A DNA stretch of 21,490 bases from the IMG/VR virus record IMGVR_UViG_2711768030_000006; one strand, given 5' to 3'. Shown in pieces: positions 6,820-20,557 of this stretch. The position numbers and the translations under genes are program-made. Source of the stretch: a virus (taxonomy: Duplodnaviria; Heunggongvirae; Uroviricota; Caudoviricetes). The notes beneath the pieces were generated by a model. It had not been told where the DNA came from. It worked only from the letters and a program-made list of their open reading frames with translations, and ran no database searches. Within the stretch, counting starts at the first letter, position 1, and each line of letters opens with the position of its first letter.

Positions 6820-6952
6820 TTTTTGGGACTCCTGGCTGATTAAGTATGTCGATAAGGCGTTTCCATCCGTCACGTAATTTACGGGTGATTCGTTCAAGTA
6901 AAGATTCGGAAGGGCAGCCAGCAACAGGCCACCCTGCAATGGCATATTGCAT
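6788..6952 (-). CDS. cIII: cIII, FtsH inhibitor that stabilises cII, 54 aa
   Basis: [54 protein letters not shown]. Confidence 0.9.
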   Translation of the reverse strand: MQYAIAGWPVAGCPSESLLERITRKLRDGWKRLIDILNQPGVPKNGSNTYGYPD

Positions 6953-7024
6953 GGTGTGCTCCTTATTTATACATAACGAAAAACGCCTCGAGTGAAGCGT
7001 TATTGGTATGCGGTAAAACCGCAC

Positions 7025-14708: not shown

Positions 14709-15086
14709 ATGCGTGATATTCAGATGGTTCTTGAGCGTTGGGGAGCGTGGGCGGCTAATAATCATGAAGATGTGACCTGGTCGTCCATTGCCGCCGGTTT
14801 TAAGGGATTAATTCCTTCAAAAGTAAAATCTCGCCCACAATGTTGTGACGATGACGCGATGATCATTTGCGGGTGCATGGCCCGTCTGAAAAAGAACAAC
14901 AGCGATTTGCATGATTTATTGGTGGACTATTATGTCGGCGGCATGACTTTTATGGCGCTTGCACGTAAGCATGGGCGATCTGATTGTTGGGTTGGCAGGA
15001 TGCTTCAGAAAGCTGAGGGCGTAGTGGAGGGTATGCTGATGGTGTTGGATCTCCGATTGGAGATGGATGCTGATTGTTCGAAATAA
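14709..15086 (+). CDS. Late-gene antiterminator Q, short phage-82/DLP12 QuuD type, 125 aa
   Basis: Cys-rich zinc-binding-like motif ([16 protein letters not shown]); GGAG Shine-Dalgarno 7 nt before ATG; position immediately upstream of a terminator and the late region. Confidence 0.75.
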
Positions 15087-15184
15087 TTAAAGGAAAAGTT
15101 GCTGTCTGATTGTCATTAGTCTAACATTTTAAATGTTGGAATCGCAACGTAGTTATTATCATATAACAGCTTGTTTCCTGATTT
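15087..15184 (+). promoter_or_regulatory. Candidate late promoter pR' and Q-utilisation region
   Basis: AT-rich interval between Q stop and the tR'-like terminator; the hexamers could not be placed reliably. Confidence 0.35.
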
Positions 15185-15213
15185 AGCCAGCCTCCCCAAA
15201 GGCTGGTTTTTTT
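15185..15213 (+). terminator. tR'-like intrinsic terminator
   Basis: Stem ccagcct (15187-15193) / aggctgg (15200-15206) followed by TTTTTTT. Confidence 0.8.
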
Positions 15214-15241
15214 CTAATAAGTATTATTTCGGGTAGGGATT

Positions 15242-15766
15242 TTATTGTTTAACCCATAATAATTCATTGACATTGAATCCCAACTTTTGAGCGGTTCGCA
15301 CATAGTCTGCTTTTACTTTATCTGGAATAGTTGGGGTCCTTGCCAGAATCCATAGGTATTCTCTGTTCGGACCACTGACAAGAGCATACTTATACTCATC
15401 ATCCAGTTTGATTACATTATAGCCACCATAGAAGGGGCCAAAAAACGAAACCTTCAATGCTGCAGTTTTAGTATCTCCAGTAAAGTATGCTTTACCTTCG
15501 CTCTCGCTCCATTTATTTTTCGTTGGATCGTATCCACGGTTAAGTACACGAATCCCTCCGTCGTTCCGTTTTCCATAAGTAGCGCTGACCTGTTCCAGAC
15601 CACGTTCGAACCGGTTCTCGAGGCGAGCTATTTCATACCATTTTCCGAGGTAGCGGTTGGCGTCAAAATTTGTAATCGGCTGCACACCTTTAGGTGGTGT
15701 CGGGGCCTTACATGCTATAAGAGTGAAAGAGAGTGCAATGCCAGTCAACACAGGCCATAACTTCAT
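15242..15766 (-). CDS. Blc-like bacterial lipocalin, outer-membrane lipoprotein, 174 aa
   Basis: Lipoprotein signal with LIAC lipobox; lipocalin motifs NFDANRYLGKWYEIARLENRFERG and FTGDTKTAALKVSFFGPFYGGYNVIKLD closely resemble E. coli Blc; AGGA Shine-Dalgarno. Confidence 0.85.
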   Translation of the reverse strand: MKLWPVLTGIALSFTLIACKAPTPPKGVQPITNFDANRYLGKWYEIARLENRFERGLEQVSATYGKRNDGGIRVLNRGYDPTKNKWSESEGKAYFTGDTKTAALKVSFFGPFYGGYNVIKLDDEYKYALVSGPNREYLWILARTPTIPDKVKADYVRTAQKLGFNVNELLWVKQ

Positions 15767-15958
15767 AATAAATCCTGTACTTTTGATAGTTGAGAGTAAG
15801 TATGAAAGATAGATGATTACGACCGATCACTTAAAGAACTTTCATACTATATTAGGAATAGTCCATAACAGAAAAATTGTCAGTGATGACGCCAGAAAGG
15901 CAATTTATTCCGTGCACTACACAGTTTATGTGTTAATGAATTAGTCAAGGGGGAGAAT

Positions 15959-16918
15959 ATGATAAAAAAACCTGTGATTGGAATCAGCGGTTGTTTGGCC
16001 GGTTCTGCTGTTCGTTTTGATGGTGGTCACAAAAGAGCTGACTTTTTAATGGACAAATTAGTGGAATGGGTAACATTCAGACCAGTATGTCCGGAAATGG
16101 CTATAGGGCTGCCAGTTCCGCGTCCTGCTCTACGTCTTGTGCGCTCGACGCAAGGAAATATACGGATGTGTTTCAGCCACGACCAGAATGAGGATGTGAC
16201 AGAGAGAATGACAGAGTTTAGTCGTTCTTATATGGACAAATTAAAGGATGTATCGGGGTTTGTGGTTTGTGCTAAATCTCCCAGCTGTGGCATGGAGCGC
16301 GTGCGTGTCTATGATGAAAATGGTAATCGAGGTCGTAAAGATGGAGTGGGACTATTTACGAGCACTTTGATGGAAAAGTTTTCCTGGCTACCGGTTGAAG
16401 AGGATGGGCGATTACATGATCCAGTGCTTCGTGAGAATTTTGTTGAAAGAGTTTTTGCTTTGCATGAGCTCAATCACCTTTACAAGGAGAAATTATCAAG
16501 AAGAGAGTTATTAGCTTTTCATAGTCGTTATAAGCTTCAGTTGTTGGCGCATAGTCAGGCAGGCTATAAAGATATGGGACCATTTGTGGCTGCAATACAC
16601 GAGTGGGCGGACCTTGAATCATACTTTGAGGTGTATCGTGATAAGCTGATGGCGATTCTCAGAAAACCTGCATCACGTAAAAATCACACGAATGTGCTGA
16701 TGCATATACAGGGGTATTTTAGTAACTACTTAAGTACACGCCAGCGTAAAGAGTTGAGCGAGGTTATACTTAACTATCGTTCTGGCACATTACCTCTTCT
16801 TGCGCCGTTGACTCTGCTGAAGCATTATCTGGGTGAGTATCCTAATGATTACTTGCTTACACAGAATTACTTCGATCCCTATCCGGACGAACTGGCTCTA
16901 AGACTGATGGTAAATTAA
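15959..16918 (+). CDS. DUF523 (TudS-like, cysteine-rich putative Fe-S) fused to DUF1722 (YbgA-like) protein, 319 aa
   Basis: N-terminal half has Cys spacing GISGCLAG...PVCPE...CAKSPSCG typical of DUF523; C-terminal half resembles YbgA-type DUF1722; GGGGGAG Shine-Dalgarno. Confidence 0.7.
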   Translation: MIKKPVIGISGCLAGSAVRFDGGHKRADFLMDKLVEWVTFRPVCPEMAIGLPVPRPALRLVRSTQGNIRMCFSHDQNEDVTERMTEFSRSYMDKLKDVSGFVVCAKSPSCGMERVRVYDENGNRGRKDGVGLFTSTLMEKFSWLPVEEDGRLHDPVLRENFVERVFALHELNHLYKEKLSRRELLAFHSRYKLQLLAHSQAGYKDMGPFVAAIHEWADLESYFEVYRDKLMAILRKPASRKNHTNVLMHIQGYFSNYLSTRQRKELSEVILNYRSGTLPLLAPLTLLKHYLGEYPNDYLLTQNYFDPYPDELALRLMVN

Positions 16919-17269
16919 TTGTATGCGATATCATCCAAAAGGATGAGTTCCTGCATGCAGGATATTTACAATCGTAAAAACTACACTATGATACCCAGAG
17001 TGTCAGTTTGTATAAAAACTCTGTTTACGCTGAAGAAACAATTGAGATGCAACTTAAAGTTGGTAAACATGCCAGTCAAAATATATAATATTATGATTCC
17101 ACGCAGCTATATATAATATAACGGATTGGTTTAATAATTTGTCTTTGTGAGTTAAATACATAATTTTATACTTGTGATGCAATGAAATTTTCCTTATTGT
17201 TGAACTGGCGAATATTGATTTTCCACCTATACTTACCTGGTGTAACCCCAATGATATCAGGTGGATAAT

Positions 17270-18001
17270 ATGCCATACATATGTTCTATCATTTTGGTGT
17301 TGAACTCGTTTGATGTCCGAATTGGTAAAGAAGATATTTTGTTTAAAAAAGGAAGTGCTGTTCTCATTGATTACAATTTAAAAGATTTTTTTTCATCAAA
17401 TATAGATCATGTAATGATCGTAGATGTTGAAGAGAAAACAGTTAATGATTTCTTTAAAAGCAACACACTCTCACCTTTTTCTGTAAGAAGGTTTTATCCG
17501 GCATACTTGATGGTGGAATGTGAAGATTTTTCATTGTTAAAGAACTTGATTGCATGCTTGAATTGTGATGGCAGAACTGTGGATTTTGTTAGAAATCAAA
17601 TATCACTTGCATGTCTTGCTATCTTATCTTCAGAGAAAATAGTGCAAAGTTTTTTATTTGGATGTCTTAATAGTTTAGGAAGTAAAGTTAAGGCTATTAT
17701 TCACACGGATATATCTGCAGCATGGAGACTTTGTGATATATCTTCAAGACTGTATCTGAGTGAAAGTCTGTTAAAAAGAAAATTAAAGCACGAAGGCTTA
17801 TCATTTAGTAAGTTAATTCTTGAAGAGCGAATGGTGATGGCGGAAAGGTTATTAAGCTACAATTTATATTCTGTTGGAAAAGTTGCTGAGATATGCGGTT
17901 ATGAAAACACGTCATATTTTGTAAGTGTTTTCAGAAGGTATTTTGGTGTTCCTCCCCATCAATATTCATCAAGATTTTTTTTAGAAAAAGACATGATGTA
18001 A
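17270..18001 (+). CDS. AraC/XylS-family transcriptional regulator (AppY/GadX/Rns-like), 243 aa from ATG 17270 (GTG at 17261 also possible)
   Basis: C-terminal double HTH (WRLCDISSRLYLSESLLKRKLKHEGLSFSKLILEERMVMAERLL...VGKVAEICGYENTSYFVSVFRRYFGVPP); AGGTGG Shine-Dalgarno 5 nt upstream; very AT-rich gene and leader. Confidence 0.85.
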   Translation: MPYICSIILVLNSFDVRIGKEDILFKKGSAVLIDYNLKDFFSSNIDHVMIVDVEEKTVNDFFKSNTLSPFSVRRFYPAYLMVECEDFSLLKNLIACLNCDGRTVDFVRNQISLACLAILSSEKIVQSFLFGCLNSLGSKVKAIIHTDISAAWRLCDISSRLYLSESLLKRKLKHEGLSFSKLILEERMVMAERLLSYNLYSVGKVAEICGYENTSYFVSVFRRYFGVPPHQYSSRFFLEKDMM

Positions 18002-18062
18002 CGTGATGCGTTTTAATGATTTTGTAATTTTCGTATTTGATAATTGTATGATGCTTTCAGCT

Positions 18063-18095
18063 ACGCCAGAATAATCGCGGCGTTTTTCTTTTTGA
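18063..18095 (+). terminator. Weak terminator-like hairpin after the AraC-family gene
   Basis: Short stem acgcc / ggcgt followed by TTTTTCTTTTT. Confidence 0.25.
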
Positions 18096-18188
18096 ATAGA
18101 TGTTCAAGCCTTACGCTAATGTAACTTCTATACCTTTCCTCTTCGTTCCGAACCGTGTACACCATCCGTTATTTGCGGAGGTGAGGCT

Positions 18189-18404
18189 ATGAAATCCATG
18201 GATAAGTTAACAACGGGCATTGCCTACGGCACCTCCGCAGGCAGTGCTGGCTACTGGTTTTTACAGCTGCTCGATAAAGTCACGCCCTCACAGTGGGCAG
18301 CAATAGGTGTGCTGGGTAGCTTGGTATTTGGCCTGCTGACGTACCTGACAAACCTTTATTTCAAGATTAAAGAAGATAAGCGCAAGGCTGCGAGAGGTGA
18401 ATAA
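18189..18404 (+). CDS. S: Class II holin of phage-21 type (pinholin S21) with dual start (71-aa antiholin from 18189, 68-aa holin from 18198)
   Basis: [71 protein letters not shown] matches S21; two TM segments; MKSM dual-start motif. Confidence 0.92.
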
Positions 18405-19600: not shown

Positions 19601-19856
19601 GATAATGGCTTATACCCTACACGGGATAACTTAACTGATATCCCTTTTAAAGGATAAAGGTATTCAAGCCTGACACATCATGCGCTGTATCGTCGCCGTA
19701 TTCCCGTATTAACAGAGACCGTAGCCCGACGGGGAACTCCTTCTGCGCGAGTGTGTGGGAATAATCAAAAACGATGCACACCGGGGTTACCGGGTACACA
19801 TATTTCATCATGCCAGCGAGTCCGGTTCTGGCACGGAAGAAACCGGACGTTATGAT

Positions 19857-20267
19857 TTAGTGCGGAAATATTTGTGTAGTGTTCTGAATGTTCTCAGTAA
19901 AGAGTAATGAATTATCAAAGGTATAGTAATACCTTTTGTTTTCGTGGATATTTGTAATCCATCTGAAAACCCCTGCTGTAGCAAGATTTTTCCTGTATTC
20001 GTAAAATGATAACTCTCCTGATTTGAATCCTTTTAAGGTGGCTTCTATAAGGCATTTATTTTTTGAAAATCTTACATTTACAACCTTACCCTGTCCTTTT
20101 ATTAAAACCGTATTATCGTTTTCAAGAACAAGATGAATATTCTCTGTGGCTAAATAGTAAATGTAATGTGAGACATTGTGACGTTTTAGTTCAGAATAAA
20201 ACCAGTGATAGTTTAAATTATTTCGCACTTTATCGAATATTTGTTTAAAAATGGCAACCTGAGCCAT
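19857..20267 (-). CDS. Hypothetical protein, DUF1398-like (YbcV/YdfO family), 136 aa from the SD-supported ATG at 20267
   Basis: GGAAGG Shine-Dalgarno 7 nt before the ATG at 20267; part of the remembered lambda right-end sequence; family assignment from memory only. Confidence 0.55.
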
Positions 20268-20323
20268 TGTAGTACCTTCCATGTGATATGAGGGGTGTAG
20301 TCTGCACGATTATCTAAATTGCT

Positions 20324-20557
20324 TCAATCTGGTCTGATCTGTTTTCTGAGCAATTCAGTAATGTCACTCTTTTCTTTGTTTGCTTCAGGAGAAACTCTTT
20401 TTTCTGAGCACAGTCTCCGGCGGCAGGCTTCAATGACCCAGGCTGAGAAATTCCCGGACCCTTTTTGATCAAGAGCGATGTTAATTTGTTCAATCATTTG
20501 GTTAGGAAAGCGGATGTTGCGGGTTGTTGTTCTGCGGGTTCTGTTCTTCGTTGACAT
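20324..20557 (-). CDS. Small ribbon-helix-helix-like DNA-binding protein, 77 aa
   Basis: Basic N-terminus then RNIRFPNQMIEQINIAL...GNFSAWVIEACRRRL, consistent with a beta-strand plus two-helix RHH fold; first gene of a two-gene minus-strand unit. Confidence 0.55.
   Translation of the reverse strand: MSTKNRTRRTTTRNIRFPNQMIEQINIALDQKGSGNFSAWVIEACRRRLCSEKRVSPEANKEKSDITELLRKQIRPD

Follow-up and report, generated by a model that had tools for sequence, protein, structure and literature searches.

The 21,490-nucleotide Caudoviricetes record IMGVR_UViG_2711768030_000006 of IMG/VR (the whole stretch is called the window below) raises the question of what an AraC-family regulator does in the late region of a lambda-like prophage. 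The gene concerned is very AT-rich and lies between the antiterminator gene Q and the holin gene S, where its product might act on the host, on the cargo genes beside it, on the phage itself, or not at all. It is an intact gene for a small AraC-family transcription factor in a lambda-like Escherichia coli prophage. Judged by sequence comparison, the protein represents a third subfamily, as yet without a name, of the PatE/Psr regulators carried by prophages, a group allied to the chromosomal regulators GadW, AppY, and YdeO. The reading that we favor, and that we regard as fairly probable, is that the protein is a functional AraC/XylS factor that would, like its PatE and Psr relatives, activate host acid-resistance genes, and that it is expressed both from its own promoter and by Q-dependent read-through.

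An intact AraC-family gene

The regulator starts at the ATG at 17270, and the same start is used in RefSeq protein WP_001146308.1, which is identical to it over all 243 amino acids and is annotated as a 'helix-turn-helix domain-containing protein'. This annotation was taken from a genome that has an identical 3.35-kb stretch around the gene. A mechanical open reading frame (ORF) call would start at a GTG at 17261. The preliminary description of this DNA gave an AraC-family ORF from 17100 to 18001; its family and end are right, and the ORF is on the plus strand, but five in-frame stop codons between 17100 and 17260 exclude a start at 17100. Pfam models HTH_18 (residues 158-234, E = 1.1e-14) and HTH_AraC (residues 200-232, E = 2e-11) both match above their gathering scores, in agreement with the C-terminal double helix-turn-helix that had been described.

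Family membership and phylogeny

Characterized relatives were extracted from annotated genomes for comparison. In BLASTP searches the regulator is 53.6% identical to PatE (Sakai ECs_0287) over 235 amino acids, 34% identical to GadW, and 32% identical to both AppY and YdeO. PsrA (ECs_1087) is 48% identical over 159 amino acids as annotated, and its full-length form shows 27% identity in the N-terminal part and 56% in the C-terminal part. GadX aligns in the DNA-binding domain only (41% identity). A multiple alignment is collinear from residue 1, with M1, C5, and S6 (an MxxxCS motif) and 25 further columns invariant and I8 nearly so. The regulator keeps all of the residues that are invariant in the GadW/AppY/YdeO/PatE/Psr clade.

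In a neighbor-joining tree with 200 bootstraps, the regulator forms a clade with two further E. coli alleles and the homolog P0013 (100% bootstrap). The sister of this clade is the PatE group (100%), and the Psr group joins these two next (94%). GadW plus AppY and YdeO lie just outside the prophage clade, while GadX and EnvY are further out and split off with 100% bootstrap. The phylogeny against known regulators that had been proposed as a check on the gene thus puts it in a prophage-borne clade, next to PatE and then Psr. The N-terminal likeness to an AppY/GadX/Rns group that had also been proposed is only partly borne out. AppY, together with GadW and YdeO, is collinear with the regulator from end to end, but GadX is 18% identical in this region and by sequence the likeness does not reach Rns either.

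More specific identifications were tried and rejected. The best NCBIfam match is full-length to YdeO, and GadX, HilD, and others match the C-terminal domain only. However, the YdeO equivalog (NF007407) scores 127.3 bits against a cut-off of 348, and the GadX equivalog (NF007432) scores 85.5 bits, from the C-terminal part alone, against a cut-off of 500. The regulator is not an AppY (b0564) ortholog, since it is 31.8% identical to a protein that groups with GadW outside of the prophage PatE/Psr clade. Nor does it fall within the PatE ortholog group, because at 53.6% identity the two form sister clades that are not nested and that each have 100% bootstrap support.

Similarity to PatE is highest in the DNA-binding domain, which is 72% identical. 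Eleven of the 12 residues of the first recognition helix are the same, with the recognition helices placed by us by means of the MarA sequence. Full-length Foldseek matches of a structural model of the regulator are Rns, CsvR, and ToxT (E about 1e-11). The N-terminal domain of this model has predicted local distance difference test (pLDDT) values of 49-78, which is low confidence for judging a fatty-acid pocket.

Predicted function

Experiments on relatives point to host acid resistance. PatE and PsrB are reported to activate gadE, gadBC, and hdeAB and to raise acid resistance, and PsrA and PsrB repress type III secretion via GadE and YhiF (review PMC10877973; PMC8565820). AppY directly activates gadE (PMC10057817). 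Because the regulator belongs to this clade and has nearly identical recognition helices, activation of acid-resistance genes is its most likely role. Of the host circuits that the preliminary description had imagined being rewired, acid resistance is therefore the best-supported, on the strength of homology to PatE (54%) and PsrB.

If this assignment is correct, the regulator would bind and activate AT-rich host promoters in the circuit for glutamate-dependent acid resistance (AR2), such as those of gadE and hdeA. Lysogens would gain acid survival, and in strains with the LEE island (locus of enterocyte effacement) there would also be indirect repression of type III secretion through GadE. 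Transcription in a lysogen would come from a weak promoter of the gene's own, with the -10 element TATACT at 17228-17233. This promoter is probably favored in stationary phase or by sigma-S and damped by H-NS on a 1.26-kb AT-rich tract. After induction, extra transcription would be added by Q-antiterminated read-through from the late promoter pR'. Read-through is proposed because the regulator is co-oriented between the terminator tR' and the holin gene and no convincing terminator separates it from the latter.

Several observations weigh against this reading. The targets are extrapolated from relatives with no more than 54% identity. In the N-terminal domain, identity to PatE falls to 40%, so the signal input and partners of the two proteins may differ. 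The putative promoter is not flagged by a consensus scan, and its -35 hexamer is poor (CTGGCG at 17205-17210, with a 17-nucleotide spacer, read by eye). The H-NS motif TCGATAAATT, allowing at most two mismatches, has no sites in 17001-18000 compared with 1.1 sites per kb across the whole window, a scan that is uninformative. Two K-12 regions that respond to PatE/PsrB or AppY, namely the one between hdeA and hdeD and a 798-bp segment upstream of gadE, were compared with the three intergenic regions of the cassette, and no above-chance similarity was found. The best 20-mers agreed at 14-16 of 20 positions, no more than in shuffled controls; this comparison is no evidence for local targets and says nothing about host targets either way. 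Roughly 10% of copies of the gene are truncated, so it is dispensable in some lineages. Finally, literature searches returned no experiment on this protein, which may already have been listed among the 'six additional Psr homologs' that a review mentions (PMC10877973).

One apparent exception in the literature concerns a different gene. The 'PatE (CIW80_12240)' overexpressed in E. coli Nissle (preprint 10.1101/2025.08.01.668021) is GadW, since the quantitative PCR primers lie inside gadW and gadA is CIW80_12250. This naming could mislead searches of the PatE literature.

Expression signals

An alignment of the 250 nucleotides upstream of the ATG from six leaders (three alleles of the regulator, P0013, the homolog P0015, and PatE) contains one invariant core, CNTATACTT, about 40 nucleotides upstream of the start codon. 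The other DNA cannot be aligned, apart from the Shine-Dalgarno position, which reads AGGTGG in five of the six leaders and GGGGGG in PatE. More broadly, all 16 of the prophage-borne members examined, from all three subfamilies, have TATACT or TATAAT about 39-42 nucleotides upstream of the ATG. TATACT positions were computed by script, and TATAAT positions were read from printed sequences. From this pattern we infer that the gene has a private promoter, with TATACT at 17228-17233 as its -10 element and transcription starting near 17240. The PatE group has a -35 hexamer of TTGGCA with an 18-nucleotide spacer. The sequence CTATACTT resembles -10 elements that are preferred by sigma-S. For comparison, patE is reported to be expressed more strongly in stationary phase (review PMC10877973).

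Downstream of the gene, a terminator scan and folding give no significant terminator between the regulator and the holin gene. The one hairpin there, at 18063-18083, has a folding energy of only -7.3 kcal/mol (z +0.8).

Upstream, a strong hairpin at 16906-16974 on the plus strand follows directly after the stop codon of the preceding YbgA-family gene (-27.6 kcal/mol, z -5.8, with none of 200 shuffled sequences as stable) and lacks a U-tract. Possible roles are in RNA stability or processing, or as an atypical terminator between the two genes. An Rfam scan of the whole window at gathering thresholds found the lambda cIII thermoregulator only, and no RNA element in the spacer at 16919-17269. The thermoregulator (88.5 bits, 6907-6965, minus strand) is as expected for a lambda-like early-left operon.

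Several genomes (for example NZ_CP098195.1, locus L097:1240-2468) carry a copy of IS2 at the 5' end of the YbgA-family gene, which shortens its product from 319 to 307 amino acids and leaves the regulator unaffected. Promoter activation of the regulator by IS2 was considered and rejected, because the element sits in the 5' end of the YbgA-family gene and not in the region upstream of the regulator.

Base composition and H-NS

The coding sequence has 31.8% GC (26.6% at third codon positions), and the whole window has 45.4%. The gene and its spacer lie in the window's longest tract, 16901-18160 (1.26 kb), whose 200-bp windows all have an AT content of at least 65%, and of all 732-bp segments of the window the one with the lowest GC begins at 16961. 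The regulator thus has the composition of a xenogeneic gene, well below the genome average. The spacer is hypervariable from 17000 to 17230, with insertions and deletions between alleles.

The preliminary description was correct that this region is AT-rich, but its figure of about 25% GC is too low, as values of 23-28% occur only in single 60-nucleotide lines. The AT-rich leader of about 340 bp that it described corresponds to an intergenic spacer of 351 bp. If the conserved -10-like hexamer is used, the implied 5' untranslated region is only about 30 nucleotides long.

The high AT content makes silencing of the regulator by H-NS plausible. Such silencing is also hinted at by psrA, which responds to a small RNA acting on hha, thereby relieving Hha/H-NS silencing (PMC13502914). 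A second AT-rich island in the window (31.7% GC, 19841-20380) coincides with a minus-strand DUF1398 (ybcV-like) gene that is located downstream of the lysis cassette.

The prophage and its cargo slot

The prophage lies next to ybhC and has the gene order int, xis, exo-bet-gam, kil, cIII, N, repressor, cro, cII, O, P, ren, nin genes, rusA, and Q. After Q come a tR'-like terminator, a lipocalin gene, a YbgA-family gene, the regulator, holin S, endolysin R, Rz, and nohD (Table 1). Homology to the K-12 prophage DLP12 ends within the 3' end of Q, at 15068, and restarts at 18178, 11 nucleotides before the holin start. It follows that the three cargo genes fill the slot that holds nmpC in DLP12. They have features of a moron, namely insertion between Q/tR' and the holin gene and a GC content that in the regulator is 32%, compared with 48-50% in Q and the lysis genes. 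Of the separate promoter and terminator that are also typical of morons, the regulator has the -10-like element at about -40, but no significant terminator comes after it. The view that the prophage carries this gene as cargo is thus upheld, and the cargo site can now be specified as the Q-S slot of a lambda-like prophage.

Table 1. Features of the window from the antiterminator gene to the holin gene, in order of position.
Feature	Coordinates	Strand	Basis
Q-family antiterminator gene	14709..15086	+	RefSeq WP_001204777.1; 89% DNA identity to quuD
Exchangeable cargo cassette between Q and holin; slot of nmpC in DLP12	15069..18177		Comparison with K-12 DLP12
tR'-like intrinsic terminator downstream of Q	15185..15208	+	Terminator scan; fold -16.7 kcal/mol, z -3.6
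Blc-type outer-membrane lipocalin gene	15242..15766	-	NCBIfam NF007786, 316 bits versus cut-off 267; Pfam Lipocalin_2
DUF523 (2-thiouracil desulfurase family) fused to DUF1722, 'YbgA family' gene	15959..16918	+	Pfam PF04463, PF08349
AT-rich intergenic spacer, YbgA-family gene to regulator (351 bp, 32.2% GC)	16919..17269	+	
-10-like hexamer TATACT, 42 nucleotides upstream of ATG; putative promoter, start near 17240	17228..17233	+	Conserved in leader alignment
Shine-Dalgarno-like AGGTGG, 5 nucleotides before ATG	17259..17264	+	Sequence
AraC-family regulator coding sequence, 243 amino acids + stop	17270..18001	+	ORF/translation; RefSeq annotation; Pfam HTH_18 and HTH_AraC
N-terminal regulatory/dimerization domain, residues 1-135; beta-rich, cupin-like, then helices; opens with M-x-x-x-C-S	17270..17674	+	
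C-terminal DNA-binding domain, two helix-turn-helix motifs, residues 136-235	17675..17974	+	
Phage-21-type holin, first lysis-cassette gene	18189..18404	+	Pfam Phage_holin_2_1, E 2.2e-35

Late transcription must pass the tR'-like terminator to reach the cargo cassette. A candidate pR' promoter (TTGCTG, a 17-nucleotide spacer, and TAACAT, read by eye) lies within 15099-15208 on the plus strand, ahead of this terminator, and the two together would give a short constitutive transcript, as in lambda. The lipocalin gene is antisense to late transcription.

Possible local targets and separate histories

A different role for the regulator would be local. It might control the lipocalin and DUF523-DUF1722 genes through the divergent promoter region between them (15767-15958), and its signal might be a lipid or a thionucleobase. 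The three cargo genes are nearly always found together in E. coli, as the 3.35-kb module is at least 80% present in 987 genomes and the regulator with its spacer occurs in 984, and the order Q, Blc, YbgA-like, regulator is kept in all IMG/VR loci with sufficient left flank. In addition, the fold relatives Rns and ToxT are fatty-acid-regulated according to their PDB titles, and the neighboring lipocalin is a lipid-binding protein. However, the suggestion of a fatty-acid pocket depends on the low-confidence N-terminal part of the model, and the comparison of control regions described above detected no motif shared between those of hdeA and gadE and the intergenic regions of the cassette.

Between alleles, divergence is 15-20% in the regulator but 1-9% in the lipocalin and YbgA-family genes. 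These neighbors are 91-99% conserved between alleles except in a promoter/start window at 15890-15989, which is 82% identical to the allele of a sequence type 69 (ST69) isolate. They have 43-44% GC compared with 32% in the regulator. This unequal divergence, the GC gap, the indel-rich spacer, and the relatives that keep the slot without the neighbors together suggest that the regulator and its two cargo neighbors have separate histories.

These relatives argue against a local role. Neither P0013 (64% identity), which directly follows a Q gene, nor P0015 (56%), which is flanked by a Q gene and a holin gene, has blc- or ybgA-like genes. Members of the Psr group (about 40% identity) occupy the same slot, also without blc- or ybgA-like genes, and Sakai psrA is just downstream of Q. 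We compared 29 such loci (L012, L013, and L098-L124), consisting of P0013, P0015, and 27 further PatE-like or Psr-like loci from IMG/VR, whose genes are about 40-64% identical to the regulator. In 16 of the 29, a Q gene that matches one of the five panel types used is found upstream on the same strand. Most of the remaining 13 have a known late gene or holin downstream, and four of the 29 have neither flank recognizable. Since distant relatives hold this position without the neighbors, the conserved feature is the Q-S slot, on the evidence of these gene orders, and not the association with blc and ybgA. Regulation of the adjacent blc-like and DUF523 genes, which had been put forward earlier, is consequently unlikely to be the main role, and we consider the local hypothesis as a whole to be improbable.

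A possible role in phage growth

The slot itself suggests another possibility. The regulator might be expressed mainly from pR' after Q antitermination and serve in lytic growth, either by reprogramming the host or by modulating lysis and late genes. Its position directly after five Q panel types and before the holin gene is conserved, it is co-oriented with the late operon, no convincing terminator precedes S, and sequenced lambda-like phage genomes have kept the gene. Against this, PatE in the remnant Sp1, AppY at the far end of the degraded DLP12, and PsrA in Sp4 after Q are all reported to be active in uninduced cells. The conserved -10 element about 40 nucleotides upstream of the ATG likewise argues for expression that is independent of pR'. 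Other cargo of the Q-S slot, such as stx and nmpC, is dispensable for phage growth, which further counts against this hypothesis. We think it is unlikely that phage growth is what the regulator serves, and activation of host acid-resistance genes remains the reading that we prefer.

Distribution and selection

The regulator and its spacer are present at a coverage of at least 80% in 984 of 5426 complete E. coli genomes (about 18%). Three DNA alleles occur: one with at least 99% identity (587 genomes), one with about 84% (found, for instance, in a Qin-like prophage of strain HS), and one with about 80% (for example the ST69 isolate). The cargo module is also found in sequenced phage genomes, at 98% in IdasGreatGrand and at 89% in Lambda_2G7a, 1H12, and several Lambda_ev phages. 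Scanning the species representatives of GTDB added no taxonomic breadth, as it returned three loci only and two of these are unrelated AraC domains. The third is a 99%-identical copy of the regulator on a 3.2-kb contig (JARKOR010000151.1). This contig was assigned to a 'Candidatus Nanosynbacter' bin but is almost certainly E. coli phage DNA that was put in the wrong bin.

Between the three alleles the ratio of nonsynonymous to synonymous substitution rates (dN/dS, Nei-Gojobori) is 0.21-0.26, with dS of 0.33-0.60. In IMG/VR, 72 of 80 loci are intact with ORFs of 237-248 codons, and the other eight are cut at 36, 206, or 208 codons. These ratios and the preponderance of intact copies indicate from sequence that the regulator is under purifying selection, though it is lost in a minority of copies. 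Protein records include a 195-amino-acid form that starts at the internal Met49 and truncated forms of 133 amino acids. Although these shortened forms, the truncated IMG/VR copies, and the probably poor expression of strongly AT-rich DNA could indicate a silent or decaying remnant without function, it is very improbable that the gene is one, given the low dN/dS at dS values of up to 0.6, the 90% of copies that are intact, the conservation of the Shine-Dalgarno, start codon, and -10 element across subfamilies, and the retention of all clade-invariant residues. The same dN/dS values speak against a non-expressed pseudogene, which the preliminary description had named as an outcome that would undo its proposal.

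Wider implications

The regulator is an uncharacterized but real and widespread member of an established class, and there is nothing conceptually new in it. AppY, PatE, and PsrA/B are established prophage-borne AraC regulators that plug into host acid-resistance and virulence circuitry. Roughly one-fifth of complete E. coli genomes carry the regulator described here, including those of commensal, avian, canine, and extra-intestinal isolates. If it is PatE-like, then a widespread, transferable gene would modify acid survival and GadE-controlled traits beyond the O157 lineage.

A generalization can be formulated, which is speculative and in our estimate has a rather low chance of being right. 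PatE, Psr, and window-type regulators might constitute one family of phage cargo, defined by a position at the head of the late operon (Q/tR' to the holin gene) and by a private promoter about 40 nucleotides upstream of the gene. In a lysogen this arrangement would provide a low, stress-gated input through sigma-S and H-NS, and upon induction it would provide a Q-driven burst. If so, prophage induction itself would trigger the GadE acid-stress program of the host, much as the same slot couples Shiga toxin to induction. In a weaker variant of this idea, the divergent N-terminal domains of the three subfamilies may sense different signals, possibly including a lipid linked to the lipocalin. The conserved slot and the -10 element are testable handles on cargo expression, and this generalization is the only part of the analysis with some wider value.

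Comparison with known systems

PatE is the closest parallel to the regulator in overall design. It has 247 amino acids compared with 243, aligns collinearly throughout, is prophage-borne and AT-rich, and has TATACTT at about -40 together with a related Shine-Dalgarno sequence (GGGGGG in PatE and AGGTGG in the regulator). Their locations differ, because PatE lies at the right end of a degraded O157 prophage (Sp1), after pinE and a GIY-YIG gene, and not in a Q-S slot, although the PatE-like P0015 does occupy this slot. The PatE regulon is also known from experiments, whereas the regulator is known here from its sequence.

PsrA and PsrB belong to the same prophage clade (94% bootstrap), lie in the slot downstream of Q in lambdoid prophages, and have a -10 hexamer at an equal distance from the ATG. 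The psr genes of O157 are, however, linked to tRNA genes, effector loci, and pch, while the regulator adjoins lipocalin and DUF523-DUF1722 genes. Sakai PsrA (ECs_1087; L008:28677-29390) is annotated with 195 amino acids from an internal Met, but its reading frame stays open further upstream, where it begins MVVVCSVIM..., for a total of 237 amino acids as in its homologs. Its annotation is thus probably short at the N terminus, to judge from the reading frame.

GadW, AppY, and YdeO resemble the regulator in their length of about 240-250 amino acids, an MxxxCSV N terminus, full-length alignment, and recognition helices of the SESL(L/I)K(K/R)KL type. AppY, in DLP12, is prophage-borne as well and activates gadE. 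These three proteins differ from the regulator in being only 32-34% identical to it and in being encoded at other loci.

Rns, CsvR, and ToxT have an overall fold that matches the predicted model of the regulator. The sequence alignment with Rns is limited to the linker and DNA-binding domain (residues 109-236), and the targets of these three proteins are instead genes for pili and toxins.

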